Source: Candidatus Saccharimonadota bacterium | GTDB taxonomy: Bacteria > Patescibacteriota > Saccharimonadia > Saccharimonadales > HK-STAS-PATE-42 | NCBI GenBank assembly: GCA_036826375.1 | Contig: DAISWL010000002.1 | Location: 37,157-101,156 of the forward strand | Direction of reading: 5' to 3' | DNA: 64,000 nucleotides | Shown here: positions 18,311 to 39,315 of the stretch, piece after piece | How positions within the stretch are numbered: the first letter of the stretch is position 1 | Layout of the letters: each line of letters opens with the position of its first letter | The notes under the pieces: generated by a model | Database searches by the model: none | What the model was told of the DNA's origin: nothing | What the model saw: only the letters and a program-made list of their open reading frames with translations | Made by a program: the position numbers and the translations under genes

Positions 18311-18411
18311 TAATACTTAGTATAAATGATCGAGATGATGCTGTCATCTTGATATTCTACTTTAACAGTTAAGAAAATAATACTTATATTAAAACTGCCT
18401 CAAAACTTAAA

Positions 18412-19152: not shown

Positions 19153-19163
19153 GTTGCCTCCCT

Positions 19164-20186: not shown

Positions 20187-20206
20187 ACATTTATATTATA
20201 AGCGAT

Positions 20207-20938
20207 TTAGCTAAAAAATTCTTCGATTTTTTTAGTGTATAAGTTCAGAGCTAAAACCTGGGCTTGATGCCCCGGAAGGTTAGTATATTCAAATTGAACA
20301 TCGGCACCAGTTAAATCTGTTAAGCCAAACCATTCCTGGGTATGTTTTTTTTGAATTAACTTATCGTTATTGCTATTAACAATTTTTAAAGATTTCCCAC
20401 TAAGCTTAATATTTGGCAAAGTTTTAGCCTCCAAATTTGACCACGTTTCTACGGCGTTCTCAACTTGTTGCTTGGTGAAATCTTTTATTTTCATTAGTTT
20501 TTGAAAGTCAGTATCCTCATAAACGTGAGTTATTAGGCCTCCCGTTGCGCTGAAAAAGTACTTATCTACATATTCAAAATTTGGGATGTTGAAATATGAA
20601 AAGTAACTGCCTAAACTGGTTCCTACTACGAAATTTTTATTCTTCAGCCTGCCAAACTTGGCTTTAATATAGCTTATTAAGCCTTTTGGTTTTATCTGAT
20701 TAAGCTTAATGTATTGCCCAACTTGTTTGATTCCTTCTTCAAGATTTTCCGGAGCACCGTAACTCAAGCATTCATCTTTTGGCTGGATGTAATGAACTCT
20801 GTATTCTTGAGAAAGTTTTTTGAGTATCGGCTTAAAAAACATTTCTTTGCCAGTAAATGGGCCAACAAAAAAGATGTTCCCCCGCGCGTGGTTATTAGCA
20901 GGCTCAATTACTTTTACTGTGTATAATTTTTGATCCAT
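20207..20938 (-). CDS. hypothetical protein, possible alpha/beta-hydrolase fold (GTSLG nucleophile-elbow-like)
   Basis: 243-aa ORF; the GxSxG-like pentapeptide VVGTSLGS is the only recognisable motif. Confidence 0.4.
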   Translation of the reverse strand: MDQKLYTVKVIEPANNHARGNIFFVGPFTGKEMFFKPILKKLSQEYRVHYIQPKDECLSYGAPENLEEGIKQVGQYIKLNQIKPKGLISYIKAKFGRLKNKNFVVGTSLGSYFSYFNIPNFEYVDKYFFSATGGLITHVYEDTDFQKLMKIKDFTKQQVENAVETWSNLEAKTLPNIKLSGKSLKIVNSNNDKLIQKKHTQEWFGLTDLTGADVQFEYTNLPGHQAQVLALNLYTKKIEEFFS

Positions 20939-20968
20939 TAGCAGTATCTAGTTTAACACGAAAAGAAA

Positions 20969-21133
20969 TTAAGCCGAACTTAAATGCCACCACTCACAAT
21001 CTTTACAAAAATAAACCTTAAGTTTAACACCGTGCCGATGCTCGGCATAAACTTTGGCGCCCTCGGCCTCAACCCGATTTTTAAACTTAAGCTTATCATC
21101 ACACTTCTTAGGTTTATCGGTTTCTGGTTCCAT
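20969..21133 (-). CDS. small hypothetical protein with CxxC-like cysteines (~54 aa from ATG at 21131-21133)
   Basis: The ORF track gives a TTG-extended 60-aa version. The ATG-initiated form MEPETDKPKKCDD...FCKDCEWWHLSSA has two Cys pairs. No SD seen. Confidence 0.25.
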   Translation of the reverse strand: MEPETDKPKKCDDKLKFKNRVEAEGAKVYAEHRHGVKLKVYFCKDCEWWHLSSA

Positions 21134-21170
21134 ACTATATACAATATACAAAATACTATATACTATTGAT

Positions 21171-21665
21171 ATGCCTAATTTTAGTTTCGATTGCGTAAGC
21201 GATTACGATAAAAGTGAAATAATTAATGTTTTCGATCAAGCCAAAAGGGAGATTGCATCTCGTTACGATTTTAAAGGCTCTAGCGCCAATATTGAATGGC
21301 TGGGTGATAAGGATGGAATTAAAATCACTGGCGATAACAACTTTCATATAGATTCAATTTTAGATATTTTAAGGAAGAAGCTAGCTGTTAGAGGGCAATC
21401 TCAAAAAATTTTAGATTGCAGCCAAGATGAAATAACTAGCAATATGAAAGTTACAAAAGATGTTAAGTTTAAGAAGGGCATTTCTAGTGAAGAGGCTAAA
21501 AAACTCAGCAAGTTAATTCGTGATAATATGCCTAAACTTAAACCCCAAATTCAAGGAGATGAACTCCGTGTAACTGGAGCCAAAAAAGATGAACTCCAAG
21601 CTGCAATAGAGTTGCTGAAATCTCAGGAATTAGATTACGACTTACAGTTTATTAATTTTCGATAA
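21171..21665 (+). CDS. yajQ: YajQ family (UPF0234) nucleotide-binding protein
   Basis: The track ORF 21054-21665 begins upstream, but the conserved YajQ N-terminus MPNFSFDCVSDYDKSEIINVFDQAKREIASRYDFKGS starts at ATG 21171. Expected length ~164 aa. Confidence 0.75.
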   Translation: MPNFSFDCVSDYDKSEIINVFDQAKREIASRYDFKGSSANIEWLGDKDGIKITGDNNFHIDSILDILRKKLAVRGQSQKILDCSQDEITSNMKVTKDVKFKKGISSEEAKKLSKLIRDNMPKLKPQIQGDELRVTGAKKDELQAAIELLKSQELDYDLQFINFR

Positions 21666-21705
21666 GCTTAAGGTTTTAAACTGAAATCTCCGTTATAATG
21701 TAATT

Positions 21706-23748
21706 ATGTTAAGTCTAGGTTCCGATATTACCGAAGTAAGTGGCGTTGGAGCGGGCATCCAGCTTAAGCTTAATCGTTTAGGCATATTTAAAGTTAGGGA
21801 TCTAATCAACCATTTGCCTTTTCGTTTTGAAGATTACAGTAAGCTAACAAAAATCGGGGAGCTGGGATCTGGCCAACAAACTATAAAAGCGAAAATTAAA
21901 ACTGTTTCTGCTCGTCGTGCTAAAACTAGAGGTACCCACATCACAGAAGTTGTTGTTGAAGATGCCACCGGATCGGTTAAAATAGTTTGGTTCAACCAGC
22001 CTTGGCGCGTAAAAAGTTTAAAATCTGGGCCAGAATATTTTTTTAGTGGTGATTTCGGGTTCCACTACAGTTATCCATCGATGATGAATCCTAGCGTTGA
22101 GTTGGTCAGTGATTTCAATACTAATACTGCTAGAATCTTACCGATATACCGACAAACCAAGGGTTTAAATTCAAAAATGATCAGAAAATTTCATGGCGAG
22201 ATTAAGCATCTTTATGCTGAAATTGAAGACGATTTGCCCCTAGAAGTGATTAAGCTTAATAACTTATTAAACTTAAGCCAAGCTATTGAAAAATTGCACT
22301 GGCCACAAAGTTCTGAAGATATTAAAATCGCCGAGCTAAGATTCAGTTTTGAAGAGTTGTTCGAGTTGATGATGGCATCTTATTTAAATAAACAAGAAAA
22401 TTTGAAGCTAAAAGCGCCTAAACTTAAGTTTGATTTAGAGCTCACTAAAAAGATGCTCGCCGAGCTACCTTTTGAATTAACAGATGATCAGAAAAAAGCT
22501 AGTTGGGCGGTGATGCAAAATCAGCAACAAACTGAACCGATGAACCGCCTAGTTCAAGGTGATGTAGGTAGCGGTAAAACTATCGTGGCGCTACTTTCCG
22601 CACTACAATGTTTGAATAGTGGCTATCAGTGCGCGGTGATTGCCCCAACCGAAATTTTAGCATCTCAGCATTTTAAGTTTTTTGAATCGGAGCTAGAAAA
22701 ATTTAAATTTAAAGCCTTAAGCTTAACATCTTCAACCCAAAAAGCTGAGCGTGAACAAATATCTAAAATTATTGAATCAGACCAGCCGGTTTGTATAGTG
22801 GGAACTCATGCTCTGATCCAGAAAAATGTTAAGTTTAGCAAATTAGGTTTAATTGTTATTGATGAGCAACATCGATTTGGAGTTCGCCAACGTCAAGCTA
22901 TGCAAAAAAATCATCAAGCGGATTTCTCCCCGCACGTACTAAGCTTAAGTGCTACACCGATTCCGAGAAGTATGATGTTAACCGTTTACGGGGAACTAGA
23001 TGTTTCTATAATCGAACAAATGCCACTAGGGCGAAAACCAGTTAAAACCGAGATTTTACCATCTAGTGGCAGAATTGAACTTTATAAAAAATTGGAGCCT
23101 GAAATCAAAGCTGGCAATCAAATGTTTGTTATTTGCCCTAGAATTGAAGCGGATGATGAAGCCGACGATGAACCGAGGAGCGTTGAAACGCAGATGGAAA
23201 ATCTACAGAAGAGTAGTTTAGCTAAATTCAGAATTGAAGCCGTTCACGGTAAAATGAAACCGGCAGAAAAAGAGGAAATCATCCTTAAGTTTAGTCGCGG
23301 AGAAATAGACATTCTAGTAGCCACTACGGTGGTTGAAGTTGGAGTCGACATCTCAAATGCAAACTTGATGATTATTGAATCTGCTGAAAATTTTGGGTTA
23401 GCTCAGCTACATCAACTAAGAGGTCGCATTGGGCGAAATCAAGATCAAGCCTACTGCTACGGTATATCCTCCACCGATGGCGCAATGCCAACTCGACTCC
23501 GCTATTTCGCTAGAGAAAACAGTGGATTCAAACTTGCAGAATACGATCTTAAACTTAGAGGCCCGGGCAGGATGTTCAGCGAAATGCAAAGTGGCAATTT
23601 CAGCTTTAAGTTTACTGACCCATCTGATTTGAAAACTATCAATAAGGTCAGAGATTCTATCAAACTAATAGAATCTGAAAAAATTAAACTTAATCAAAAA
23701 CTGCTGGCTAAGATTAATGATTTACGTCGAGTGAGCATCTTGAATTAA
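21706..23748 (+). CDS. recG: ATP-dependent DNA helicase RecG
   Basis: 680 aa; wedge/OB N-terminus, helicase motifs GDVGSGKT and DEQHRFGV, and a TRG-like region. Confidence 0.9.
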   Translation: MLSLGSDITEVSGVGAGIQLKLNRLGIFKVRDLINHLPFRFEDYSKLTKIGELGSGQQTIKAKIKTVSARRAKTRGTHITEVVVEDATGSVKIVWFNQPWRVKSLKSGPEYFFSGDFGFHYSYPSMMNPSVELVSDFNTNTARILPIYRQTKGLNSKMIRKFHGEIKHLYAEIEDDLPLEVIKLNNLLNLSQAIEKLHWPQSSEDIKIAELRFSFEELFELMMASYLNKQENLKLKAPKLKFDLELTKKMLAELPFELTDDQKKASWAVMQNQQQTEPMNRLVQGDVGSGKTIVALLSALQCLNSGYQCAVIAPTEILASQHFKFFESELEKFKFKALSLTSSTQKAEREQISKIIESDQPVCIVGTHALIQKNVKFSKLGLIVIDEQHRFGVRQRQAMQKNHQADFSPHVLSLSATPIPRSMMLTVYGELDVSIIEQMPLGRKPVKTEILPSSGRIELYKKLEPEIKAGNQMFVICPRIEADDEADDEPRSVETQMENLQKSSLAKFRIEAVHGKMKPAEKEEIILKFSRGEIDILVATTVVEVGVDISNANLMIIESAENFGLAQLHQLRGRIGRNQDQAYCYGISSTDGAMPTRLRYFARENSGFKLAEYDLKLRGPGRMFSEMQSGNFSFKFTDPSDLKTINKVRDSIKLIESEKIKLNQKLLAKINDLRRVSILN

Positions 23749-23774
23749 AATATTGTATAATGATTAACAGGTGT

Positions 23775-23864
23775 GCGGTGGTGGCGGAATTGGTAGACGC
23801 GCTAGCTTGAGGGGCTAGTGTCCGATTTTAGGACGTGGAGGTTCAAGTCCTCTTCACCGCACCA
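23775..23864 (+). tRNA. tRNA-Leu (anticodon GAG), class II with long variable arm, CCA encoded
   Basis: Near-identical architecture to E. coli tRNA-Leu. 7-bp acceptor GCGGTGG/TCACCGC, anticodon arm CTAGC-TTGAGGG-GCTAG, T-arm GGAGGTTCAAGTCCTCT. Confidence 0.9.
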
Positions 23865-23877
23865 AAAGAACTTAGAT

Positions 23878-24396
23878 ATGTTTACGATGATAACTAAGCA
23901 CCATAATTACGACACTGGCTATATTAGCCTTGTGAATTTAGAGTTGGGGGATCTCCCAAAGACAATTAAGTTTAAAGGTAATAATTTGTTATTAAAGAAT
24001 GAGTTTCATATTTCGATAATGGCTATAAAAAATCTAGCTCCAATGCTAAATTCTAATAACTTAGAGCTTGCTAGCGAACAACTCAAACAAGATTTTATTA
24101 ACTTTGCAGCATCTCATGATTTAATAAACTTCAGACCTACTGGTCATTTTAGAATCGTAACCCGTGATGACCGAATCTCAATTATCGCTATGGTGCAATT
24201 ACGAAATATTGATAAGTTATACAGCTATCTAAGAGCAAAATACGATGTAGATTTTCCTACCCAGCCTACCCACATAACTATGTATACTCTTCAGCCTGAA
24301 GCTGGAATAGGGATTTTATCTGAGGAAGAGCTTGAAAGAGACAGTATCAATGCGGATATACCGGAACTTAATGGGCTAAGGATTGTGAGTAGTTAA
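23878..24396 (+). CDS. 2H phosphoesterase superfamily protein (LigT/ThpR-like 2',3'-cyclic phosphodiesterase)
   Basis: Track ORF trimmed because its start lies inside the tRNA. 172 aa from ATG 23878; two H-x-S/T-x motifs in hydrophobic context (FHISIM at His44, THITMY at His132), spaced ~88 aa as in LigT. Confidence 0.5.
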   Translation: MFTMITKHHNYDTGYISLVNLELGDLPKTIKFKGNNLLLKNEFHISIMAIKNLAPMLNSNNLELASEQLKQDFINFAASHDLINFRPTGHFRIVTRDDRISIIAMVQLRNIDKLYSYLRAKYDVDFPTQPTHITMYTLQPEAGIGILSEEELERDSINADIPELNGLRIVSS

Positions 24397-24397
24397 T

Positions 24398-25015
24398 ATG
24401 GCTAAAGAAATTGAAGTAAAATTTTTAAATATTGATCACGAAGAGATGCGTGCTAAGCTTAAGGCACTGGGCGCTAAGCTTAAATCTCCAAAAACACTTT
24501 ATAAAAGAATTAATCTAGATTTTAAAGATAATTCACTCCATAAACTGGGTAGCTGGGTTAGGTTGAGAGATGAGGGAGATAAAATCACCCTTACACATAA
24601 AATTCACAGTAAAGATCAAAAAGATCAATTAAAAATTGAAGAATTTGAAATCACCGTTAATAGCTTCGATCATGCAGTTAGTTTTTTGGAATCTATCAAT
24701 ATGAAAGTTAAAACCTACCAAGAAAATTACAGAGAAAACTGGAGCCTAAAAACCCAATCTGGTTTGGTAGAAGTGGCGCTAGATCAATGGCCTCACGTTA
24801 GGCCTCATATTGAAATAGAGTTGGAATCTGGGGATGAAAAATCTCTGGAAGAAGCCTGCCAAATGTTAAACTTAAATTTCACTCAAGCCATTAATGATGA
24901 CATCTGCCCGGTATACATGGCTGAGTATGACATATCTGAAAGATCTCAACTGTACGATTTAGAAGGTGGCTTCAGGTTCAATTCGCCGATTAAGCTTAAC
25001 AGGAAATTAACCTAA
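24398..25015 (+). CDS. CYTH-domain protein (triphosphate tunnel metalloenzyme; CyaB/ThTPase-like)
   Basis: 205 aa; N-terminal EIEVKF (ExExK) and C-terminal HIEIELESGDE (ExExE) signature motifs. Starts 2 nt after the upstream gene. Confidence 0.65.
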   Translation: MAKEIEVKFLNIDHEEMRAKLKALGAKLKSPKTLYKRINLDFKDNSLHKLGSWVRLRDEGDKITLTHKIHSKDQKDQLKIEEFEITVNSFDHAVSFLESINMKVKTYQENYRENWSLKTQSGLVEVALDQWPHVRPHIEIELESGDEKSLEEACQMLNLNFTQAINDDICPVYMAEYDISERSQLYDLEGGFRFNSPIKLNRKLT

Positions 25016-25165
25016 ATGACGACAAAAGCTCAAAATATTTATCGCTCAGATGATACAATTCATAATTATCGAAGTTACTACAAAAAGGCTAAGCCATCTG
25101 AAAATTACGGGAAACAGCTTCTCTTATGATTTTTGGGATATGAAAAAAGTTCAAAAGCATTTGGT
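25016..25165 (+). pseudogene. 5' remnant of a second copy of the HIT-family gene found intact at 29391-29822 (internal ~70-nt deletion, premature stop)
   Basis: Direct sequence comparison. 25016-25060 and 25128-25164 are near-identical to 29391-29435 and 29572-29607. Translation MTTKAQNIYRSDDTIHNYRSYYKKAKPSENYGKQLLL* versus MITKAQNIYRSDDNISNYQNYRKKVKPSEN... Confidence 0.55.
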
Positions 25166-25217
25166 ATTGGAAGTTAGAAATTGCTTATAGTTCTCTTAAT
25201 AATGCTATAATCAAAAA

Positions 25218-25308
25218 GTCTAAACAAGCAGCTAAAACTAGCATAAAGAGCCCTTTTAGGGCACTCACTAAGGTTTTAGTTCTTTAACTAGGGCTGTTTG
25301 TTTAGACG
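25218..25308. repeat. nested inverted-repeat element (outer 15-bp arms GTCTAAACAAGCAGC / GCTGTTTGTTTAGAC; inner CTAAAAC...GTTTTAG and GCCC-TTTTA-GGGC hairpins)
   Basis: Seen directly. Sits between the HIT-gene remnant and the first cargo gene of the insertion. Confidence 0.4.
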
Positions 25309-25384
25309 CAAATAAGTGGGTGTCCTTTTTAGTTACAGATACCTACTAAACACTAAACAATTAAACAAATGGAGGTATCTATTT

Positions 25385-26080
25385 ATGGATGCAAACTCAA
25401 ATAAAGCCCCTCAGCAAGGCAATAACACATTAGCAATACTATCTTTAGTATTTAGCTTTCTATTTGCCCCAATGGGCTTAATTTTAGGAATTATTGCCCT
25501 AGCAAAGAAACAAAGTAAAGGCTTGGCAATATCAGGTATAGTAATATCATCACTGGGCTTACTATTCTTCATATCAATTATAGGCGCTGGATCCAAGGCA
25601 GTTAACGACGTTAGCAAGGAGATTAATGATGGCGCTAGTAGTTCTTCTTCAAAGTCATCAAGTAAAAACCAAGCCCCTGCTGGTAAGGTTGGTGAACCGG
25701 TTAGGGACGGTAAGTTCGAGTTTACAGTTTTATCCCAAGAATGTGGCATAACCAAAGTAGGTAATGAATACCTTAACAAAACAGCCCAGGGTCAATACTG
25801 TAAAGTTAATATCAAAGTTAAGAACATAGGGGACAAACCTCAATCCTTATTTTCAAGCAGCCAAAAGCTATTTAGCTCAGACAACAAAGAATTCTCAACC
25901 GACGATTCAGCTATGATTTACGATAGCTCAAACAGCCAGAGTGTTTGGCTAAATGAAATTAATCCAGGTAATGAAGTTACGGGAAACCTAATATTCGATA
26001 TACCAAATGGAGTAACTCCTTCTTCAGTAAAACTTTTTGACTCTGCATTTAGCGGAGGCGTGAGTGTTGGGTTGAACTAG
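25385..26080 (+). CDS. membrane-anchored DUF4190/DUF4352-like protein
   Basis: Start moved to ATG 25385 (GGAGG 10 nt upstream). Hydrophobic DUF4190-like N-terminus (LAILSLVFSFLFAPMGLILGIIALAKK), Ser-rich linker, then a DUF4352-like beta domain (GKFEFTV...YCKVNIKVKNIG...FDIPNGV). Confidence 0.55.
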   Translation: MDANSNKAPQQGNNTLAILSLVFSFLFAPMGLILGIIALAKKQSKGLAISGIVISSLGLLFFISIIGAGSKAVNDVSKEINDGASSSSSKSSSKNQAPAGKVGEPVRDGKFEFTVLSQECGITKVGNEYLNKTAQGQYCKVNIKVKNIGDKPQSLFSSSQKLFSSDNKEFSTDDSAMIYDSSNSQSVWLNEINPGNEVTGNLIFDIPNGVTPSSVKLFDSAFSGGVSVGLN

Positions 26081-26215
26081 GAAAATATATTTTCAGATTT
26101 GCCCTTATAAACACTGGGGGGTTAATGTGCCTCGACTTATAATATAGACGGCTTAGTATTGAGTTCAAGTTGAATAGCTATCTGATAATAAATGTTGTAA
26201 AAAGTAATATTAATG

Positions 26216-26248
26216 TTGACTTTTTATATTTTTAAGTTATGATAATAT
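26216..26248 (+). promoter_or_regulatory. candidate sigma70-type promoter (TTGACT, ~17-19 bp spacer, TGATAATAT)
   Basis: Seen directly, upstream of the high-GC ORF and the methyltransferase gene. The exact -10 placement is ambiguous. Confidence 0.3.
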
Positions 26249-26291
26249 AAGTACACCTCACTTCAGGGGTGTCGTACCGAAAGGAACAGAA

Positions 26292-26507
26292 ATGAGAGTT
26301 GAATCAGACGGAAGCGTGACACTCTGCCATGTCGACCAGAACTGCTGCTGGACGTTGGGCTACAAAGACGGCGTCGTCAGGGTTTCCGACGAACACGGGA
26401 ACACCATCCTGGGGACCCCAGCTGAGTTCGGCTCCTTCCTCGCGGAAGCGGCAGGGGCAGCCAACCATCTCGGGATCCCCGAGATGGCAACTGCCGCCTC
26501 CTCCTGA
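26292..26507 (+). CDS. small high-GC ORF, DUF397-like (actinobacterial-type)
   Basis: 71 aa. Residues ~30-65 (VVRVSDEHGNTILGTPAEFGSFLAEAAGA) resemble the DUF397 core (V.VRDSK.P.GP.L.FT..EW.AFLAG) recalled from Streptomyces proteins. Codons are GC3-rich, unlike all neighbours. Confidence 0.35.
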   Translation: MRVESDGSVTLCHVDQNCCWTLGYKDGVVRVSDEHGNTILGTPAEFGSFLAEAAGAANHLGIPEMATAASS

Positions 26508-26679
26508 GTCGGCGCGGGTTCGTTGGGGGTGGTGTAGCTAGTCTGCACCGCCCCTAACGGCGAATTTTATACTTTCTGTACTGAGAGAAATGAGTTGTAG
26601 CTTGATAGGCTCCTTATTTCTCTCAATCGTTTTGAATTTATTAAATCTTATTAATTAAAGAGATGAGATCTATCGGATT

Positions 26680-27282
26680 ATGCATTTGCATGAAGTAGCC
26701 AGGGCAAGCGATGCTGTAGAGCTAAATACAGCTTTGGCCACCCCAGATACAGATTCTGACTTAGGGCTATACCTCAGACTATTAGGTGTAGATGCTGGTG
26801 AATTAGGGAGCCCAATACTAGATTTAGGCTCAAGTAAAACCCTTACATTTGCTACTGAAATGGCTAAATTGGGTAAGAGGGTTATATCACTAAGCCCAAA
26901 ATATATAATAGATAGTGAAAGACCCAGATTACCCCTAACACACAAGGGATTAACTGAACCTCTCGGGTTCTGCTTAGCGGCCTTGGCTCAAGAGTTACCG
27001 TTCAGGGATGGCTGTTTTGAAACAGTTGTGGCTGTGGGCTCTATACCTATGTACCTGCCCCGCAAAGCATATAAGGGCACACTAGAAGAAGTTATTAGAG
27101 TCACAAAACCACGAGGCAGCGCTTTCATTGGACCTATTTATGAGTTCTCGGAATCTAACTTTTCAGAAAGACTGTTTTTTGAAGCAATTAAAGGCGTTAA
27201 AGGCGCTGATATATCAATAGTAGATATGAAATCTCAAGGAGGAACTTCCTACAAGATCTTGAGGGTGAATAAATTCCAATAA
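26680..27282 (+). CDS. class I SAM-dependent methyltransferase
   Basis: 200 aa; motif I ILDLGSS, motif II-like KRVISLSP, post-I acidic loop, RVTKPRGSAFIG resembling the RVLKPGG block of Methyltransf_11/25-type enzymes. Confidence 0.6.
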   Translation: MHLHEVARASDAVELNTALATPDTDSDLGLYLRLLGVDAGELGSPILDLGSSKTLTFATEMAKLGKRVISLSPKYIIDSERPRLPLTHKGLTEPLGFCLAALAQELPFRDGCFETVVAVGSIPMYLPRKAYKGTLEEVIRVTKPRGSAFIGPIYEFSESNFSERLFFEAIKGVKGADISIVDMKSQGGTSYKILRVNKFQ

Positions 27283-27318
27283 TCAGCAGAAGATTAAACT
27301 CTTGCTACACTAAGAACT

Positions 27319-28983
27319 CTAGAGTTGGATAGTTTTGTTGGCGCCAAAAGCTTCTACAAAATCTCTATCGTGACTAATTAGTATAACAGCTCCTTTATAT
27401 CCTTTTAGAGCTTCTTGTAGGCCATCTATAGCCTGTATATCTAAATTATTAGTAGGTTCATCTAAGACTAGCAAATTAGCCTTATTAGCAACGGCCGCTG
27501 CTAATAAAATTCTCATTCTCTCGCCGCCACTAAGTGAACTAACTGGCTGACCCTTGATCTCATTAGGACTTAGCCCGAATCTAGCCATTAAACTATTAGC
27601 CTCTTGGGTGTCTACATCTGGAGCAATATTAATCAGGTTACGCATAGCGTCTTCAGACGGACTAGGCAATGATTGCTGCTGATCTATATAAACAACTCTC
27701 GCACTAGCAGATAGTCTTACATCACCAGACACGGCCAAGCCTTCAGGAATAGTTGTAAGGGGTAGCATTCCTTTTAGTAAGCTGGTTTTGCCAGAGCCGT
27801 TGGAGCCAGCTATTAACATTCTATCGCCTGGAGCTAGGTGAAAACCAAATGGTCCTATATCTAGACTGCTTTCCATTGTGGACGCAGCAGCTCTTCTGAC
27901 CTTAAGCTCGTTAGCTTCTAAAATGCTAGTTCCTAATTCTGCGCTGGGAATATCGAAGTCTAGCTTGGGCAGCTCCGCCAATGTCAGTCTTGGTTTGCGC
28001 GCTCTCATCTGTTCCAATCTGGAATCTAGAGCCCTTATCTTGGCTGATGAGCTGGTACCTGCTCTCTCTGCTTTAAAGTTGTGAGCAGATTTGTCGTTAT
28101 CACGTGGGCCTCTCCTCGATCTAGCTGCCGAACTAGATTGACGACTTCTCAACTGTCTGGTAGATTTCTCTAGCCTAGAGATTTTCCTTTCATGTTCCAC
28201 CAATTCATCTTCCTCCAATCTTAAATCTCTATCCCTTAAACTCAGGTATTCTTCATAGCTAGTATTGTAGTGCCTAATACCTCCTGAGTTAGCAGATACC
28301 TCCAGAATACTGGTTGCTACATTTCTCAGAAATCTTCTATCATGGGTAGCGACCAAGAAAGCCTTACTACCACTGGATGCAGCAGACCTAACATAATCCT
28401 CTAGAAGTTCAGCTCCTACTGAATCTAAATTATTTGTAGGCTCATCCAACAATACAATGTCGTATACATTTGCAAATATTGTAGATAGTACGATTCTCGA
28501 TACCTGCCCCCCAGATAGTCGTCTCATTGGCCTATCGATAGTTATATCAGACATGCCCATATCAGATAAAAACCTTAAAACATTTGCCTGCATGACTGCG
28601 GAATCGAACCTAGCTAACCTTTCTGCCGTGTCACATAGTGCTTGAAGATTCTCAGCAGTTTGAAATCTGGTATATGCATCACTGGCTCTATCGTATTCTA
28701 ATTCAGCCAGTTCAACTCCACTGACCCTATTGATATATTCCCCCACGGTAAGGGTGGTACTGACGTTCTGAGGGACGTTACCAATATCAACATGCCCTGT
28801 AGTAGATACTCTACCTGATGAGGGCTCCAGCGAACCTCCTATTAAATTAAGCAAAGTCGTCTTACCTGAGCCGTTTGGGCCTACAAGCCCCGCAACATCA
28901 CCTCTGTTTATGGAAAAACTAACGTCTTCAAGGACGAGTCGACCACGGTCAGTTTCATAACTTATATCATCAACTTTCAACAT
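27319..28983 (-). CDS. ABC-F family ATPase with two ABC domains, no TMD and a long Arg/Lys-rich inter-domain linker (ARE-type/ribosome-associated)
   Basis: 554 aa; Walker A GPNGSGKTT and GSNGSGKTS, signatures LSGGQVSR and LSGGERMR, and a ~100-aa linker rich in R/K/S. Confidence 0.85.
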   Translation of the reverse strand: MLKVDDISYETDRGRLVLEDVSFSINRGDVAGLVGPNGSGKTTLLNLIGGSLEPSSGRVSTTGHVDIGNVPQNVSTTLTVGEYINRVSGVELAELEYDRASDAYTRFQTAENLQALCDTAERLARFDSAVMQANVLRFLSDMGMSDITIDRPMRRLSGGQVSRIVLSTIFANVYDIVLLDEPTNNLDSVGAELLEDYVRSAASSGSKAFLVATHDRRFLRNVATSILEVSANSGGIRHYNTSYEEYLSLRDRDLRLEEDELVEHERKISRLEKSTRQLRSRQSSSAARSRRGPRDNDKSAHNFKAERAGTSSSAKIRALDSRLEQMRARKPRLTLAELPKLDFDIPSAELGTSILEANELKVRRAAASTMESSLDIGPFGFHLAPGDRMLIAGSNGSGKTSLLKGMLPLTTIPEGLAVSGDVRLSASARVVYIDQQQSLPSPSEDAMRNLINIAPDVDTQEANSLMARFGLSPNEIKGQPVSSLSGGERMRILLAAAVANKANLLVLDEPTNNLDIQAIDGLQEALKGYKGAVILISHDRDFVEAFGANKTIQL

Positions 28984-29110
28984 ACTTTATAATAATAGTA
29001 ACATATTCTCCGATTTGTTCAAGTCGAACGTATTAACTCGCAACCTTTGCATCATAAATCTTAGTTTAGAATCTTAATTTCTAGAGAACACCTCGTCTTA
29101 GACAAAACCG

Positions 29111-29230
29111 CTAGGTTCTAAGGCTAGCGGTGTAAGCCGCTGGACTCATACGTAATGCATTGTGAATACGCTGGTTGCAGTAGTAATAAATATCCTTAGC
29201 AATTGTTTCGTGGGTTAGCTCGCTGCTGTG
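29111..29230 (-). pseudogene. C-terminal remnant (~40 aa) of a DDE transposase (rve integrase-type, IS3-family-like tail)
   Basis: Minus-strand translation ...ETIAKDIYYYCNQRIHNALRMSPAAYTASLRT* matches the conserved IS3/rve C-terminal pattern Y.FYN..R.HS.LGY.SP..Y recalled from memory. No upstream catalytic part is present. Confidence 0.45.
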
Positions 29231-29376
29231 GCGCAGCCCGAAATCTACAATTAAAAGCATCGAGCATCTTCATTTTCACTTGATAAAAACCGAGGATGCT
29301 AAACTTAATATTCTGGTAGAATATTCAGATTAGAACCAACCTCTGGCCTCTAACCTGCTATAATTAAGCTTAATAG
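29229..29376 (+). pseudogene. 3' remnant of the HIT-family gene plus ~45 nt of its downstream region, duplicated immediately upstream of the intact copy
   Basis: ~93% identical to 29719-29866, including ...IEHLHFHLIKTEDAKLNILVEYSD and the downstream TATAAT-containing spacer. It abuts the transposase remnant. Confidence 0.55.
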
Positions 29377-29390
29377 GAGGCCAACTTAGA

Positions 29391-29822
29391 ATGATAACAA
29401 AAGCTCAAAATATTTATCGCTCAGATGATAACATTAGTAATTATCAGAATTATCGTAAAAAAGTTAAGCCATCTGAAAATTGTGTTTTTTGTTCTGATGA
29501 AAAGCCGAGTTTTAATCCTCGAAGCTTAAACTTAAGGCATCTTAGAATTATAGAAAATAGCTTTCCGTACGATTTTTGGGATATGAAAAAAGTTCAAAAG
29601 CATTTGATGATCATCCCACTCAACCACATAGATTGCGTATCCAAACTTAATTCTAACGAGCAAAAAGAGCTAAACTTAGTTATGGCCCATTTTTCTGATG
29701 CTGGCTATGATATTTTTGTTCGCAGCCCGCAATCTACAATTAAAAGTATCGAGCATCTTCATTTTCACTTGATAAAAACCGAGGATGCTAAACTTAATAT
29801 TCTGGTAGAATATTCAGATTAA
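29391..29822 (+). CDS. HIT (histidine triad) family hydrolase
   Basis: 143 aa; C-terminal HLHFHLI matches the H-phi-H-phi-H-phi-phi triad; N-terminal CVFC; AGGAGG 7 nt upstream of the ATG. Confidence 0.6.
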   Translation: MITKAQNIYRSDDNISNYQNYRKKVKPSENCVFCSDEKPSFNPRSLNLRHLRIIENSFPYDFWDMKKVQKHLMIIPLNHIDCVSKLNSNEQKELNLVMAHFSDAGYDIFVRSPQSTIKSIEHLHFHLIKTEDAKLNILVEYSD

Positions 29823-29855
29823 AACCAATCTCCAACCTGGTATAATTAAGTTTAG

Positions 29856-30467
29856 ATGAAGATTGATTTCAAAAAACAGTTAACTTGCTATAAGGCTTCC
29901 CGAAAACTAGAGATCATCGAGGTGCCAAAATTACAATATTTAATGATAGATGGGTTTGGTGATCCTAACGCATCTAAAATGTATCAAGATGCACTCCATA
30001 CTCTGTACCCGGTTGCTTATAAACTTAAGTTTATTTCAAAAAATTTAAATAAAGATTTTGTAGTGATGCCGCTGGAAGGTCTGTGGTGGGCGGATCAGAT
30101 GGATAGTTTTACATCGGCCAGAGATAAAAGCCAGTGGCACTGGACGATGATGATTATGCAACCGAGCCATATAACTCCGGAAATGTTAAAAGATGCTAAG
30201 CTTAAGTTGGCTCAGCAAAAAGATGCTCCGCCGCTACTGGATGATATAAGGCTTGAATATCTGAATGAAGCTACGTCGGTTCAAGTTTTGCACGTTGGTT
30301 CTTATGATGATGAAGCAGATATTTTAGCCAAGATGCATCATGAATTTATCCCAGAAAATAAGCTTAAGATGGTTGGTAAACATCACGAAATCTATTTGAG
30401 CGATCCCAGAAAAATCAGCCCCGAAAAATTAAAAACAATTTTGCGCCAGCCGGTAGAGAATCTATAA
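29856..30467 (+). CDS. GyrI-like small-molecule-binding domain protein
   Basis: 203 aa; the C-terminal HHEIYLSDPRKISPEKLKTILRQP block resembles the GyrI-like/effector-binding domain family, from memory. Confidence 0.4.
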   Translation: MKIDFKKQLTCYKASRKLEIIEVPKLQYLMIDGFGDPNASKMYQDALHTLYPVAYKLKFISKNLNKDFVVMPLEGLWWADQMDSFTSARDKSQWHWTMMIMQPSHITPEMLKDAKLKLAQQKDAPPLLDDIRLEYLNEATSVQVLHVGSYDDEADILAKMHHEFIPENKLKMVGKHHEIYLSDPRKISPEKLKTILRQPVENL

Positions 30468-30527
30468 AGTTCTAGACATCTTCACTAAATTTAATTTATT
30501 TGCTACAATTAAGTTTAGTGGTTTAAT

Positions 30528-30604
30528 GGGTGGCTAGCTCAGTTGGCTAGAGCATCTCGTTTACACCGAGAGGGTCGGGGGTTCGAGTCCCTCGCCACCC
30601 ACCA
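30528..30604 (+). tRNA. tRNA-Val (anticodon TAC), CCA encoded
   Basis: Cloverleaf: acceptor GGGTGGC/GCCACCC, D-arm TAGCTCAGTTGGCTAGAGC, anticodon loop TTTACAC, T-arm GGGGGTTCGAGTCCCTC. Confidence 0.9.
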
Positions 30605-30636
30605 TTAACACTTATATTTTTTAAAAAATCATGAGC

Positions 30637-30712
30637 GGCTCTTTAGCTCAGTTGGTAGAGCAGAGGCCTGAAGAGCCTTGTGTCCCCAGTTCGAGTCTGG
30701 GAGGAGCCACCA
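30637..30712 (+). tRNA. tRNA-Phe (anticodon GAA), CCA encoded
   Basis: Acceptor GGCTCTT/AGGAGCC (one G-U pair), D-arm TAGCTCAGTTGGTAGAGC, anticodon loop CTGAAGA, T-arm CCCAGTTCGAGTCTGGG. Confidence 0.9.
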
Positions 30713-31013
30713 CAAAACGTTATTTTATACTTAAGCTTAGTGAATATCCGCTAAGCTTTTTTGTTTATAAAAGATTTCCCATTGGCGAGAACTGGATTAG
30801 CGAGCCGATAGAGCGAGCGCAGTCGGCGGAATGAATAAGCGCGCAGCAACCGGAACGAAGTGAAGATTGCGAGCACTTATGGATGGAGGAGGCGAAGCCG
30901 ATGTCTGGGAGGAGCCACCACGAAACGTTATTTTATACTTAAGCTTAGTGAATATCCGCTAAGCTTTTTTGTTTATAAAAGATTTTCCATTGGCGAGAAC
31001 TGGATTAGCGAGC
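30695..31013 (+). repeat. tandem direct duplication (~111-nt unit, ~98% identical, period 208 nt) of the tRNA-Phe 3' end (19 nt) plus the downstream terminator region, with a 97-nt GC-richer unique spacer
   Basis: Copy 1 at 30695-30805 and copy 2 at 30903-31013 differ at 2 positions. Spacer 30806-30902 is ~55% GC. Track ORFs 30631-30834 and 30860-31132 are artefacts of this repeat. Confidence 0.7.
30733..30764 (+). terminator. rho-independent terminator after tRNA-Phe (stem AAGCTTAG/CTAAGCTT, 10-nt loop, TTTTTT)
   Basis: Seen directly. The stem is built from the iterated AAGCTT palindrome. A second copy lies at ~30941-30972 inside the duplicated unit. Confidence 0.6.
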
Positions 31014-31059
31014 GAGTGCTTTTTACAAAGCTCAAGGTAGTATCTACTAGAATTAATAC

Positions 31060-31593
31060 TCAGGCTACTATTATATTACCTGCAGCCAGGCGAGGTCCTC
31101 CACTATGGCCTTTTTCCTCGCTCGGGGTATAAGGATCTTCTTTTAAATGGACCATTATTGAAGTGCCCTCTGGTGAATTTAACAATGATGCCGGACCTGG
31201 GCTAAGACTAAATCTATTGGTAATTGCTTCCATCTGACCATTTCCTTCTTCATCTACAATAATATTAGGCAAATCCCCAGCGTGATAACTATGATTAACA
31301 TCTGGGTTAGTGTTACCATTTGGGCCGGGATCAAAGTGCCCACCAGTACACATAAAGGTATCGGAGGCTTCATCTTCACATGTCATTGCTTTTTCATGGA
31401 TGTGACATGCATGCTTTCCCGGGGCTAGCACAGATGTATCGCCGCTAAGCTTAACACTAACTTTAACGTATTTGTAGCCTTCAATATCGTATTCTATGAA
31501 TTCTGCTCGGCCAGATATCCCCCTTCCTGATATCTCAGCTGCAGCTTGAGCTGTAACTTTACTTTGGTTGGATATTAAATCTACTTGTGCCAT
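31060..31593 (-). CDS. sodC: Cu/Zn superoxide dismutase
   Basis: 177 aa; copper/zinc-ligand blocks HACHIHE, GGHFDP, HAGDLPN; N-terminal region compatible with secretion. Confidence 0.85.
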   Translation of the reverse strand: MAQVDLISNQSKVTAQAAAEISGRGISGRAEFIEYDIEGYKYVKVSVKLSGDTSVLAPGKHACHIHEKAMTCEDEASDTFMCTGGHFDPGPNGNTNPDVNHSYHAGDLPNIIVDEEGNGQMEAITNRFSLSPGPASLLNSPEGTSIMVHLKEDPYTPSEEKGHSGGPRLAAGNIIVA

Positions 31594-31644
31594 TGTTTGG
31601 ACTCTCCCTTAAGTTTAATCTTACTTTAAATAAACACTATAAGC

Positions 31645-33459
31645 CTAGTCATCCTTCTTAATGAGAACTGTGAAGGCCTCGCTGGGTATCTCTACTTTAC
31701 CAAATTTTTTCATTCTGGCCTTACCTGCTTTTTGTTTAGCCCAAAGCTTTTTTTTACGGCTAACGTCTCCTCCGTAAAGATGAGCCGTGACATTTTTCTT
31801 TAGCGCGGAGACATCTTCACGAGCAATAAACTTACCGTTAATAGCCGCCTGTAAGCTGACTTTAAACAGTTGTTTAGGAATTATATCTTTTAATTTCTCA
31901 ACGATTCTACGCCCGATCGCTGGGGCCTCGGTTCTGTGTACTACTAAACTTAAAGCATCTACCATTTCTCCTGCAACGTAAAAATCTAATCTTACTAAAT
32001 TTTCTTCTCGATAGTCTGTTATCTGATAATTGAAACTTCCGTAACCGCTAGTAACAGATTTCAAGCTATCGTAAAAATCTGTTAGCATGTTAGCTAATGG
32101 AGCTTCAAAGCTTATTATTGCCAAGCCCCCTTCGGTATAGCTAAGGCCCTTCTGCAAGCCTCTAGAGGTGGCGATTAAACTTAATGTACCACCGAGATAC
32201 TCTTTAGGAGCAACTATCTCTCCGTTGATCCAGGGTTCTTTAATAGCTACAACCTGATCTGCTGATGGCATGTCGCTAGCAGATTTTATACTAACCTCGG
32301 AACCATCACTAAGTTTAATAATATAATCTGTGCTAGGGTTTGTGACAATAATTTCTAAATTATACTCACGCTCTAGCCTTTCTTTGACTATTTCAAGATG
32401 CAATAAGCCCAAGAATCCGATCCTAAACCCGAATCCTAGCACTGGTGAATTCTCTTGAGAGAATTTAAGCGCACTATCGCTTAAGCTTAACTTCTCTATA
32501 GCATCTTTTAAGTCTTCGTAGTCTTCATTGCTGGCCGGGAAAAACCCAGCGTATACAAATGGTGTAACATCTTTATATCCCCGGAGGGCTTGCCTGGCTG
32601 GTTTAGATTTTAAAGTAACCGTATCCCCGACCTTAGCTTCTGAAGTCGAATGCAGATTGGTTACTATATAGCCGATCTCACCAGAGTTCAAGGAAGGATC
32701 TTTAATCATACCAGGAGAAAGATGCCCAACTTCTAGGGCTACACCGTGCGTAGATTCAGCCATCATTGTTATCTCATCGCTATTCTTAATTTGGCCGTTG
32801 AAGAGGCGGACATAAACTACCACGCCCCTGTAGTCATCATAGTAGCTATCGAAAATTAATGCTGCAGTAGGCTCGTGAATAGAGTTAAGTTCGCCACTTG
32901 GTGGTGGTATCTGACTAACTATTGCGTCGAGCACTGAATCTACCCCCTGACCAGTTTTAGCACTAACCTTAATGATATCCTCTTGTTTGCAGCCAAGTAG
33001 ATCTATAATTTCTGAGCTAACTTTTTCTACGTCTGCAGCGGGCAAATCTATTTTATTCAAAACTGGGATAAGCTTTAAATTCTGCTCAAAAGCTAAATAA
33101 AGATTGGCCAGGGTTTGTGCCTGAACGCCCTGGGTGGCATCAACCACAAGGATAGCCCCCTCACAAGCCTGTAAAGAACGTGAAACTTCGTAGCTAAAAT
33201 CTACATGACCAGGAGTATCTATCAAGTTTAATTGATAGGTGATGTCATTTTTCTGATAAGCCATCCTAACTGGCGCAAGCTTAATAGTAATACCCTTCTC
33301 GCGCTCTAAATCCATCTTATCTAACAATTGTGATTTCATATCGCGCTTATTAACAGTACCTGTTAATTCTAGAAGTCTATCCGCAAGAGTAGACTTACCA
33401 TGGTCTATATGAGCAATTATTGAAAAATTTCTGATTAAGCCTAAATCTGAATTAGCCAC
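31645..33459 (-). CDS. lepA: elongation factor 4 (LepA)
   Basis: 604 aa; begins NFSIIAHIDHGKSTLADRLL; LepA-specific C-terminal domain. Confidence 0.93.
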   Translation of the reverse strand: MANSDLGLIRNFSIIAHIDHGKSTLADRLLELTGTVNKRDMKSQLLDKMDLEREKGITIKLAPVRMAYQKNDITYQLNLIDTPGHVDFSYEVSRSLQACEGAILVVDATQGVQAQTLANLYLAFEQNLKLIPVLNKIDLPAADVEKVSSEIIDLLGCKQEDIIKVSAKTGQGVDSVLDAIVSQIPPPSGELNSIHEPTAALIFDSYYDDYRGVVVYVRLFNGQIKNSDEITMMAESTHGVALEVGHLSPGMIKDPSLNSGEIGYIVTNLHSTSEAKVGDTVTLKSKPARQALRGYKDVTPFVYAGFFPASNEDYEDLKDAIEKLSLSDSALKFSQENSPVLGFGFRIGFLGLLHLEIVKERLEREYNLEIIVTNPSTDYIIKLSDGSEVSIKSASDMPSADQVVAIKEPWINGEIVAPKEYLGGTLSLIATSRGLQKGLSYTEGGLAIISFEAPLANMLTDFYDSLKSVTSGYGSFNYQITDYREENLVRLDFYVAGEMVDALSLVVHRTEAPAIGRRIVEKLKDIIPKQLFKVSLQAAINGKFIAREDVSALKKNVTAHLYGGDVSRKKKLWAKQKAGKARMKKFGKVEIPSEAFTVLIKKDD

Positions 33460-33464
33460 GATAA

Positions 33465-35039
33465 CTACTTTTGACCCACAAATTTAACGAACTTCTCTAC
33501 TACAGGTTTGGCTTCTTTTAAGCCAATTAAATAACTAACGATGATATAGGCTATTATAGATATACTAACGGTAATAATGAACTTGGGCACAATCACCATG
33601 AATCCAGCATCCCCAGATCGTAGGGGCAATATTTTAATCATAAACCAGGTTATGAAAGAGGTAGCGAGCCCAGCTAATAGCATTTTTAAAATCTGGGATA
33701 TCACTTCCTTATCAAATAGCTGGTCGACATGTTTTTTCAAGAACTTCATTAATATCAGAACCTCTACTACACTAGATGATGTTTGAGCTATAGCCAAGCC
33801 TCTTACCCCTAAAGCTGAAGACCGGCCGAGAGTTATAGCCAGCACTATGTTCAAGGCAACAGCAAAGAAAGAAATGTAGAGAGGGGTCATAGTATCCTGC
33901 TTGGCGTAATATATCCTTGTTAGAATCTGGAAAAGAACCTTTGCGCCGATTAAGCCAACTAGTAGCGCCAATATGGAGGCTATCACCGCGTTGCCTTTTG
34001 CGAATAGCAGCCTAACTAAATAACCACGGCCAAAGTATGTAATTATCATTGTCGGGATGATCAACCATATTATAATCTTCACGATATTCTGAACTTCCTT
34101 CTTGAATAAATCTGGACGATTCTGGTTTAAACGTTCGGTCATCCTGGGGAATGCAGCAGTGGATATTGCGGCACCGACTAAATTAACCGGAACTGTCTGC
34201 AGAGTAAAAGCTGTCTGGTAGGCCGTGATCATACCAGGTCCTAATCTTGAAGCCATGTTAGTTTCGACCAATACGTTAAGATAATCTATGCTTTGGTCTA
34301 ATGAGCGTGTGGGAAGAATTTTGAGCACCTTATGGAAAGCTTTGTTTTTAGTATATATCCACGGTGAATAGTTAAACTTAAGACCTATCAGGCCAATAAT
34401 GCTTGTTATCAGTTGAAGAAAAGATCCGATTACCACACCGTAAGCAACCCCCATTATGCCAAATTTTGGAGATAGAAAGATAACTCCGGATATAATACCC
34501 AAACTATAAACCGATGGAGCCATGGCGTAAAAGAAGAACTTACCATGAGCTTGCTGGATGCTCGTAAGAACGCTACTCACCGAAAATAGTATCGGGTTGA
34601 TAGCAATTATACGCATCATACTAACAGCCAAAAAGGTGGCGTGTTCATCTAAGCCCGGAGCCACTATTTTAGATACTAGCGTTTCTGCAAATATAATTAT
34701 AAGTATGCTGGCTACAGTAGTAGATATTGCTAGTATATTGACTAAGCTACTACTTAGCTCCCACGCTGAGTGCCTATTCCCTTTAGCTATTCTTTCGTTG
34801 AAAACTGGTATAAAGCTAACACTAAGAGAACCAGAAACCAGAATGAAGAACATAAAATCCGGGATAGTAAAAGCTGTGCGATAGGCATCTATTTCTGGAC
34901 CTAAACCAAAATTGGCCAAAATAAGCCTTTCCCTGAGTAATCCAAGCATGCTAGAGAAAATGCCTGATGCCGCCAGCATGGCCGCCGCATAACCCACACT
35001 CATGTTCTTATTGAATCTTAAAACTAATTTTTTGATCAT
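33465..35039 (-). CDS. murJ: lipid II flippase MurJ (MviN)
   Basis: 524 aa polytopic; N-terminal LGLLRERLILANFG...DAYRTAFTIPDFMF typical of the MurJ/MOP family. Confidence 0.8.
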   Translation of the reverse strand: MIKKLVLRFNKNMSVGYAAAMLAASGIFSSMLGLLRERLILANFGLGPEIDAYRTAFTIPDFMFFILVSGSLSVSFIPVFNERIAKGNRHSAWELSSSLVNILAISTTVASILIIIFAETLVSKIVAPGLDEHATFLAVSMMRIIAINPILFSVSSVLTSIQQAHGKFFFYAMAPSVYSLGIISGVIFLSPKFGIMGVAYGVVIGSFLQLITSIIGLIGLKFNYSPWIYTKNKAFHKVLKILPTRSLDQSIDYLNVLVETNMASRLGPGMITAYQTAFTLQTVPVNLVGAAISTAAFPRMTERLNQNRPDLFKKEVQNIVKIIIWLIIPTMIITYFGRGYLVRLLFAKGNAVIASILALLVGLIGAKVLFQILTRIYYAKQDTMTPLYISFFAVALNIVLAITLGRSSALGVRGLAIAQTSSSVVEVLILMKFLKKHVDQLFDKEVISQILKMLLAGLATSFITWFMIKILPLRSGDAGFMVIVPKFIITVSISIIAYIIVSYLIGLKEAKPVVEKFVKFVGQK

Positions 35040-35132
35040 TAAGCTTAATTATAACCTATATTCAAGATTTTATGTTAAACTATTAGCCAGTAAGTAGAGA
35101 AATTTAAAAGGGTAATATAAGAAGGATTATTT

Positions 35133-36224: not shown

Positions 36225-36412
36225 TAAATATAGAGAGCACATTTTAGCTTGCTCCAGATTCTGGCGAGATAGATCCGCGATACAAATAGTTTTATTATAA
36301 GAAGCTATATCCTTAGCTTTAGCTATAGAAATAGGGGCAAGAAACTGTTTAGTTATTAGGATAGCTAGGGCGATAATTAAGCAAGTAATAATTTTCAGCC
36401 TATACCCCTACC

Positions 36413-39290: not shown

Positions 39291-39315
39291 AATATGTATT
39301 TAATGCTGACTTGGT

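Follow-up and report, generated by a model that had tools for sequence, protein, structure and literature searches.

The window examined here is a 64,000-nucleotide (nt) stretch from an uncultivated Candidatus Saccharibacteria genome, the name being the annotation of a HIT homolog and of an ABC-F cluster. Within its CYTH-HIT-GyrI interval, located between tRNA-Leu and tRNA-Val/Phe, one copy of a HIT-family gene is split by about 4 kb of unrelated DNA, and an intact HIT gene follows. We assign a probability of roughly 60% to the reading that this interval is a strain-variable recombination hotspot, with the window carrying one of its alleles, and that the two nested cassettes of the islet, M1 (25164-26080, plus strand) and M2 (26081-29231), have been spread, lost and stacked by homologous recombination through the HIT fragments, probably after natural transformation. 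A preliminary description of this DNA had instead proposed a single acquisition mediated by an insertion sequence (IS), followed by decay.

The HIT pieces were found by repeat finding, alignment and BLAST. The degenerate 5' fragment (25016-25163, plus strand) corresponds to HIT nt 1-216 and carries a 68-nt deletion near 25103-25107, which takes out the conserved PSENCVFC motif and shifts the frame. It aligns to the intact gene in two blocks (25015-25106 to 29390-29481 and 25090-25163 to 29533-29606) at 84-85% identity and, read in the HIT frame, yields MTTKAQNIYRSDDTIHNYRSYYKKAKPSEN, resembling the homologs P0001 and P0002. The last 36 nt of this fragment, GATTTTTGGGATATGAAAAAAGTTCAAAAGCATTTG (25128-25163, plus strand), are identical to 29571-29606 in the intact gene. 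This exact direct repeat encodes the DFWDMKKV core of HIT, the columns of which are invariant in the alignment of HIT homologs. On the other side of the cargo, the 3' fragment (29232-29333, plus strand) represents HIT nt 331-432 and ends with the stop codon TAG at 29331-29333. Together with the start of the spacer (29232-29343) it aligns to 29721-29832 at 96%, and the downstream spacer at 29348-29372 aligns to 29830-29854 at 88%. Both fragments thus match the intact gene region (29391-29866), as the preliminary description had anticipated in placing them on either side of about 4 kb of unrelated DNA. Their HIT coordinates (nt 1-216 and nt 331-432) do not overlap, as expected for one interrupted copy. 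Their divergence from the intact copy is unequal (23/148 mismatches in the 5' fragment vs 4/112 in the 3' fragment; Fisher p=0.0017), so the two do not share one simple history. The 3' fragment is itself a mosaic: two of its variants are those of the P0002-type lineage, and a 7-nt patch (29310-29316) agrees with the intact gene next to it. M2 joins HIT without homology at 29231/29232.

The alleles present in relatives were collected by exact-protein look-ups and then mapped to the window. In a distant relative (L015, an 899-kb contig at about 74% nucleotide identity), the order is RecG-tRNALeu-ORF-CYTH-HIT-DUF218-GyrI-SodC-LepA, with one intact HIT gene and no cargo; in closer relatives (L024-26) the order is CYTH-HIT-ORF218-NUDIX, again with a single, uninterrupted HIT. 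The CYTH-domain gene (24398-25015, plus strand; Pfam CYTH 1.7e-13) is the conserved left neighbour of HIT, and the CYTH-HIT order is kept in L015 as well as in L024-26. M1 alone occupies the HIT gene in a further set of contigs, with GyrI downstream in L037, L041, L043, L044 and L046 and ORF218/NUDIX downstream in L038 and L042, at 99.7-99.9% identity. All of these M1-only alleles share the left junction GCATTTG/GTATTGG, and in them M1 is followed by an 86-nt terminator and then by HIT from nt 175, so that M1 is bracketed by a direct repeat of about 40 nt of the invariant DFWDMKKV core. The window departs from these minimal alleles right after the DUF4352 stop codon, where M2 replaces the 86-nt terminator and HIT nt 175-330. 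Many contigs have M1 by itself at this position in HIT, which means that the cargo was gathered in more than one step, with M2 as a second and nested arrival; the idea of a single event of about 4 kb is given up accordingly. The complete M1+M2 cargo recurs in L028 and L031-33, with one mismatch across 25441-29076 (3.6 kb) and the same transposase-HIT junction. There, the HIT 3' fragment has a P0002-type ending and runs directly into ORF218-NUDIX, from which it follows that the cargo interrupts the only HIT copy. With cargo-free, M1-only and M1+M2 alleles all present among relatives, the description of the locus as a strain-variable accessory islet is borne out.

The flanks of the cargo differ between lineages. 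L037/L038 match the window at 99.8-100% over the 5' fragment and M1, and at 100% over the 5' fragment itself, with a CYTH gene at only 72% and a RecG gene at about 73%. The left block of identity begins at 24902 in L037 (breakpoint 24901/24902, inside CYTH) and at 25099 in L041 (breakpoint 25098). To the right of the islet, L037 matches the window at 99% for 8 kb, vs 73-80% to the left. Variable crossover points beside near-identical cargo are, judged from these alignments, the signature of exchange through flanking homology. Cultivated Saccharibacteria have ComEC-dependent natural transformation, and cassettes are inserted into them via homologous flanks of about 1 kb (PMC10633639).

Loss and stacking are seen at the same repeats. 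The contigs L006 (3268 nt) and L008 (1893 nt) equal the window minus 25164-29606 (4443 nt), base for base, and the same deletion junction is present in L007, L010 and L012. These 'empty' alleles retain the degenerate 5' fragment and encode a truncated product of 109 residues. Because they are the exact product of recombination across the 36-nt repeat, the nearest empty sites (L006, L008, L012 and others) would most simply be secondary deletions and not the ancestral state. Empty sites in relatives, by which the preliminary description had proposed to judge the islet, exist, the nearest of them carrying the degenerate 5' fragment.

A third cassette appears in one metagenome-assembled genome (MAG; contigs L039 and L002). 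Its order is CYTH, HIT codons 1-8 fused to an APH-family (phosphotransferase) gene, the 29334-29390 spacer haplotype, an undeleted HIT nt 1-216, M1, M2, the HIT 3' fragment with spacer, and the intact 143-residue HIT gene (HIT143). The APH-family gene (L039 8736-9506; GCA_049290995.1, JBATOO010000061.1) is in frame with the first eight HIT codons (MVTKAQNI...) and runs up to the expected position of the HIT stop codon; no NCBIfam model matches it. If an APH allele and a window-type allele underwent unequal exchange at the HIT core, this stacked order would result.

The intact HIT-family gene of the window (29391-29822, plus strand), recognized as such in the preliminary description, encodes 143 residues and includes, at 29571-29606, the right-hand copy of the 36-nt repeat. 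It matches Pfam HIT (PF01230) with 24.2 bits vs a cutoff of 21.5 over residues 67-130, and its histidine triad HLHFHLI is located at residues 122-128, with H122, H124 and H126 invariant in the homolog alignment. Full-length homologs (139-169 residues, 41-90% identity) share the motifs PSENCVFC, FPYDFWDMKKV and HLHFHLIKT, which marks the 143-residue form as ancestral. Between the 3' fragment and HIT143 lies a junction (29334-29390, plus strand), read from the sequence and the alignments, in which the post-HIT spacer is followed by a copy of the CYTH 3' end. It comprises a 7-nt insertion at about 29346-29352 in the spacer, an extended -10 box TGCTATAAT at 29356-29364, a 10-nt microhomology ATTAAGCTTA at 29363-29372 that recurs both at the 3' end of CYTH and downstream of HIT143, and a ribosome-binding site AGGAGG (29375-29380) within the copy of the last ~28 nt of CYTH (24989-25015) that is duplicated ahead of the intact gene. 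The haplotype of this spacer recurs after the APH-family gene in L039. We read the junction as the scar of a duplication or of an illegitimate join that supplies HIT143 with its own expression signals. With an extended -10 box and a ribosome-binding site of its own, HIT143 has probably kept its function in the window lineage. Beyond the collected contigs, an exact 25-nt pattern across the junction had 0 matches in JGI metagenome contigs, a HIT profile found only three distant loci in the same contigs, and a HIT protein scan of GTDB species representatives gave no confirmed relative.

From these alleles, we infer an order of events in which transformation would be the vehicle. First, a single entry of M1 into the conserved core of an intact HIT gene would have put HIT nt 1-216 to the left of the module and nt 175-432 to the right, with about 40 nt repeated. 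M2 would later have replaced the M1 terminator and HIT nt 175-330, probably as foreign DNA that carried, or was captured beside, an IS now cut down to about 40 transposase codons. In the window lineage, the split copy would then have come to lie upstream of an intact HIT gene, with the duplication junction at the 10-nt microhomology. Finally, the cassettes would have moved between divergent Saccharibacteria by recombination in the HIT and CYTH flanks, most plausibly after natural transformation, and recombination between HIT pieces would have removed or stacked them: deletion between the two copies of the 36-nt repeat would produce the 'empty' alleles, and unequal exchange at the same repeat the MAG with the HIT-APH fusion.

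M1 consists of a TATAAT-like box, a structured leader and a membrane-protein gene at 25385-26080. The nested hairpin noted earlier in the cargo is real, the 90 nt at 25218-25307 folding with z=-5.66, and it is followed by the terminator-like GGGTGTCCTTTTT. The membrane protein matches the Pfam family DUF4352 with 95.9 bits vs a cutoff of 25.9, which secures one half of the earlier DUF4190/DUF4352 assignment; DUF4190 is a weak match below its cutoff (26.4 vs 35). Relatives of the protein in species-representative genomes number 498, mostly from Actinomycetota and some from Saccharibacteria, at 39-59% identity. Rfam at gathering thresholds finds nothing but tRNAs in the window, and below threshold the islet yields only rydB at the chance level (E=0.27). 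The leader hairpin was not found upstream of other Saccharibacteria DUF4352 genes, except for a weak similarity in L115, a contig from another Saccharibacteria MAG, where 3415-3549 resembles window 25218-25347 (nhmmer E=0.006) upstream of a DUF4352 homolog of about 46% identity. The hairpin and GGGTGTCCTTTTT, placed ahead of the DUF4352 gene, could be a cis-regulatory attenuator. Inside the start of this gene, breaks occur in at least five independent assemblies, with contig ends at 25441 or 25454 and one contig start at 25330. Breaks at 25330-25454 indicate a fork in the assembly graph, so that another context shares this stretch of about 125 nt; no second copy of it is present within the 64-kb window.

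The composition of the two modules differs. M2 is foreign: its tetranucleotide distance of 0.276 exceeds the background maximum of 0.231 and thus all 114 background windows, in a window with an overall GC content of 39.2%. M1 is genome-typical, 30/197 background windows being equally distant; the GC and tetranucleotide profile that the preliminary description had proposed thus sets M2 apart and not M1. M2 carries an open reading frame (ORF) of 71 residues, a methyltransferase, an ABC-F ATPase and about 40 codons of an IS3-like transposase C-terminus. The 71-residue Cys-rich ORF (26292-26507, plus strand; 61% GC) lies behind a promoter-like site at 26216-26243, as had been described, and is followed by a strong terminator hairpin at 26520-26560. 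Its earlier label, DUF397-like, is rejected: neither the ORF nor its homolog P0135 has a Pfam match at E<=10, and phmmer against 1.84 billion representatives returned the ORF itself, P0135 (54% identity, with a shared CHVDQNCC motif) and repeat-protein noise. A small ORF of about 61% GC is present in two low-GC genomes (window 26292-26507; L047 2825-2908), with neighbours at 39-43% GC, and the region 26240-26680 folds unusually well (z=-5.0).

The two enzymes named in the preliminary description are both recovered. The class-I S-adenosylmethionine (SAM)-dependent methyltransferase (26680-27282, plus strand; 200 residues) scores 24.6 bits against Methyltransf_11 (cutoff 21.2), and its best PDB matches are generic small-molecule methyltransferases only (E~0.01). 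A single-sequence AlphaFold model of it reached a pLDDT of 33.8, was unusable and was set aside. The divergent ABC-F ATPase (27319-28983, minus strand; 554 residues) has two ABC domains, a basic linker of about 110 residues and no membrane domain; Pfam ABC_tran matches at 1.6e-45 in two stretches, with a weak ABC_tran_Xtn match at residues 232-291. Its best NCBIfam model is the 'ribosomal protection-like ABC-F' NF000355, with 341 bits vs a cutoff of 380, and the Msr, Vga, Lsa, Sal and OptrA models all lie far under their cutoffs. The best PDB matches are Uup, EttA, LsaA, VmlR/ExpZ, YheS and YbiT. The nearest homolog is 45% identical, and the native ABC-F of the window (36413-38104) is 24% identical. 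An actinobacterial origin of the gene was considered and rejected, the actinobacterial matches being about 32% identical vs 38-45% for those from Saccharibacteria. On the minus strand at 28984-29030, only 0-2 nt separate the end of a promoter-like -10 box, TATAAAGT, from the start codon of the ABC-F gene, much as in L047 ahead of the 45%-identical ABC-F. The transcript would thus seem to be leaderless, in contrast to resistance ABC-F genes, which typically have leader-peptide attenuators. The native ABC-F gene adjoins an MFS transporter gene and a ParE/YafQ-type toxin gene at about 36413-39576 (L001 11084-14247), a few kb to the right of the islet.

In L047, a 45%-identical ABC-F is convergent with a 51%-identical methyltransferase, which adjoins a GC-rich small ORF with a homologous C-terminus. 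A 41%-identical ABC-F (P0014) has no methyltransferase neighbour, so the trio of ORF71, methyltransferase and ABC-F is a conserved unit only among the closest relatives. We infer that M2 is a translation-directed module, in which the ABC-F would bind the ribosome together with the co-conserved methyltransferase and small protein, and in a habitat rich in actinobacteria it may give protection from antibiotics that target the ribosome.

Several points weigh against the reading of the islet as nested cassettes exchanged through HIT homology. The order of events can be read in the opposite direction, the deleted allele being a possible recipient of the 4443-nt segment by transformation, with the same sequences resulting either way. 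All L028-type contigs stop at 25441, and the left flank is not covered in them. No allele with two intact HIT copies in tandem was found, so the duplication step follows from the junction sequence only. The transposase remnant rests on sub-threshold similarity, and the functional reading of M2 is weak given an ABC-F score of 341 vs 380 bits and a methyltransferase substrate that cannot be assigned. All comparisons involve metagenome contigs, and some mosaics could be assembly chimeras; the key junctions, on the other hand, recur in independent assemblies.

The IS origin proposed in the preliminary description depends on the remnant at the right end of M2 (29111-29231, minus strand), about 40 codons resembling an IS3-like (rve) transposase C-terminus, truncated where they meet the HIT 3' fragment. 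The position of this remnant abutting the right junction is confirmed, and its family identity receives weak support: the sole Pfam match is rve_2 (E=0.12; 13 bits vs a cutoff of 22) over profile positions 24-51 of 56, at the C-terminal end of the profile, and 13/24 residues match the C-terminus of an annotated IS3-family transposase fragment. There is no NCBIfam match, and the remnant is frameshifted in L028. For its C-terminal end (...IYYYCNQRIHNALRMSPAAYTASLRT), no intact relative was found, a large protein search giving no word-sharing candidates, and local tblastn against the window and all fetched loci returned only the remnant itself, by which kinship with the IS30-like transposase of L038 was also rejected. 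The DDE catalytic core is absent, the frame running for about 40 codons before the HIT 3' fragment ends it. No IS ends, terminal inverted repeats, target duplication or second IS copy occur in the 64-kb window or the fetched loci; a composite transposon would need two bracketing IS copies, and the 64 kb hold one truncated remnant only.

It is unlikely that HIT was duplicated in tandem and that an IS with the whole cargo then transposed in situ into the upstream copy and decayed. Such a course would account for a split copy joined to an intact one at a microhomology junction, for an IS3-like C-terminal remnant exactly at the right junction and for the foreign composition of M2. Against it stand the many genomes in which M1, by itself, fills this site behind an identical left junction, so that at least two events are required, and the identical M1+M2 cargo and junctions in a single-copy HIT gene elsewhere. 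The remnant is moreover internal to an IS of which no ends, second copy or target duplication are seen, and the divergence of the 5' and 3' fragments differs (p=0.0017). In-situ insertion does not explain the islet, and the part left to an IS is, at most, one in the initial capture of M2.

An equally unlikely account treats M1, and by extension the 4443-nt segment, as a site-specific or Campbell-type cassette, that is, a circle with one copy of the HIT core of about 36-40 nt, in which the core is att-like and the 'empty' alleles are excision products or naive sites. In every case the insert indeed occupies one and the same position in HIT, between direct repeats of the invariant core (36 nt exact in the window, about 40 nt around M1), the deletion alleles equal the predicted excision product, and M1 occurs in backgrounds with flanking genes down to 72% identity. 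Yet no integrase or recombinase ORF is present in 25016-29390 or its immediate flanks, and no circular junction was observed. Outside the core, the left breakpoints fall at different places (24901 in L037, 25098 in L041), which is the mark of exchange through flanking homology, and the right copies of the repeat vary by 2-3 nt with the HIT allele of each lineage. Plasmids and phages show no DNA similarity to the islet.

Slightly less probable still is a joint proposal in which the trio would be an undescribed translation-protection or resistance cassette circulating among Saccharibacteria, and the HIT core of 36-40 nt a recombinase-free docking site used via a circular intermediate. The resistance-cassette part accords with the stacking of an APH-family gene at this hotspot in another MAG. 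Saccharibacteria live on or among antibiotic-producing Actinomycetota. If true, docking via the HIT core would constitute a simple cassette-exchange system capable of insertion, stacking and excision.

That the locus is an assembly chimera of co-occurring strains joined through repeated HIT sequences is very improbable: several assemblies do break inside M1 (ends 25441-25454; start 25330) and the locus is polymorphic in the sampled communities, but an independent Logan contig from a different run (L030/L040, SRR13208909) covers 25022-29426 at 100% identity with both junctions included, ENA contigs at 100% cover 14398-25454 and 25330-39822, and an NCBI MAG agrees, containing the right half of the arrangement.

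The tRNA genes on both sides of the interval show rearrangements of their own. In L018, which is 99.97% identical to window 15890-23867, a HIT homolog with only 62% identity to HIT143 comes directly after tRNA-Leu, and a tRNA-Val-like region comes next; this strain lacks ORF192, CYTH, the islet and GyrI, so the whole interval from tRNA-Leu to tRNA-Val is replaceable. In L006, L007, L009, L010, L013 and L041, identity to the window is 100% from 23860, in the 3' end of tRNA-Leu (23775-23864), rightwards. To the left of 23860, these contigs have other genes (adh_short, YdjC) and, after them, a remnant resembling a tRNA 3' end, GGTTCTAGCG...CACCA, which suggests a further island integrated at tRNA-Leu in those strains. 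At tRNA-Phe (30637-30712), a 208-nt tandem duplication is present (30695-30805 and 30903-31013). The duplication unit begins with the last 18 nt of tRNA-Phe, GTCTGGGAGGAGCCACCA, repeated at 30903-30920, and looks like an att-like scar; L002 has one copy of the unit, and L038 has several, followed by an IS30-like (HTH_38) transposase gene.

Gene flow in the candidate phyla radiation (CPR)/Patescibacteria is poorly documented, and this locus provides a concrete, sequence-resolved case, with accessory genes that are near-identical while neighbouring core genes differ by 20-28%. To our knowledge, few mobile elements are known for CPR/Patescibacteria, and almost none have been described in the Saccharibacteria phylum. 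The exchange at the locus fits the natural competence recently shown for cultivated Saccharibacteria, and it supplies testable alleles as well as a candidate neutral or insertion-tolerant site. An ABC-F with a methyltransferase and a small-protein partner, and an APH-family gene in a sibling allele, hint at a hotspot that collects drug-defence genes, which would bear on the survival of epibionts on antibiotic-producing hosts.

Parts of the islet resemble several known systems. The C-terminal motif IYYYCNQRIHNALRMSPAAY at the edge of the foreign DNA resembles the rve-type Y-N-x-x-R-x-H...P-x-x-Y end of IS3-family transposases, although the likeness is sub-threshold and the remnant, at about 40 codons, is without the DDE core, terminal inverted repeats or target-site duplication of an IS3-family element. 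Antibiotic-producing Streptomyces pair antibiotic-resistance (ARE) ABC-F genes with rRNA methyltransferase genes, as in tlrC/tlrB, carA/carB and lmrC/lmrB. M2 likewise places a long-linker ABC-F beside a SAM-dependent methyltransferase, a pairing kept in L047 (45%/51%). Unlike the ARE proteins, the M2 ABC-F falls under the NCBIfam cutoff, and in PDB comparisons it is no closer to them than to housekeeping ABC-Fs; the methyltransferase beside it is one of the small, generic class-I enzymes and lacks an rRNA-methyltransferase signature, and the third partner, the 71-residue Cys-rich protein, is without counterpart in those pairs.

Homology-facilitated illegitimate recombination and microhomology-based tandem duplication occur in Acinetobacter, Pseudomonas stutzeri and Streptococcus pneumoniae. 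The join of the spacer to the unit of CYTH 3' end and HIT143 lies, similarly, within a 10-nt microhomology, and M2 joins HIT without homology; the difference is that only the scar is seen here, which fits both a duplication before the cargo arrived and a junction formed during import. A further likeness is to islets exchanged through flanking homology. Competent bacteria such as Streptococcus, Neisseria and Acinetobacter swap capsule and other accessory cassettes in this way. Common to those islets and the HIT locus are alternative cargo between the same neighbours, variable crossovers in the flanks, coexisting presence and absence alleles, and cargo that is near-identical in divergent backgrounds; in addition, the phylum is naturally competent (PMC10633639). 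The HIT islet differs in lying inside a gene, the fragments of which serve as portable homology for loss and stacking, and in its host, an ultrasmall epibiotic CPR bacterium of a group where such hotspots are little described. A strain-variable hotspot of this kind belongs to an ordinary, known type and calls for no new principle; the detail in which it is seen here is unusual.

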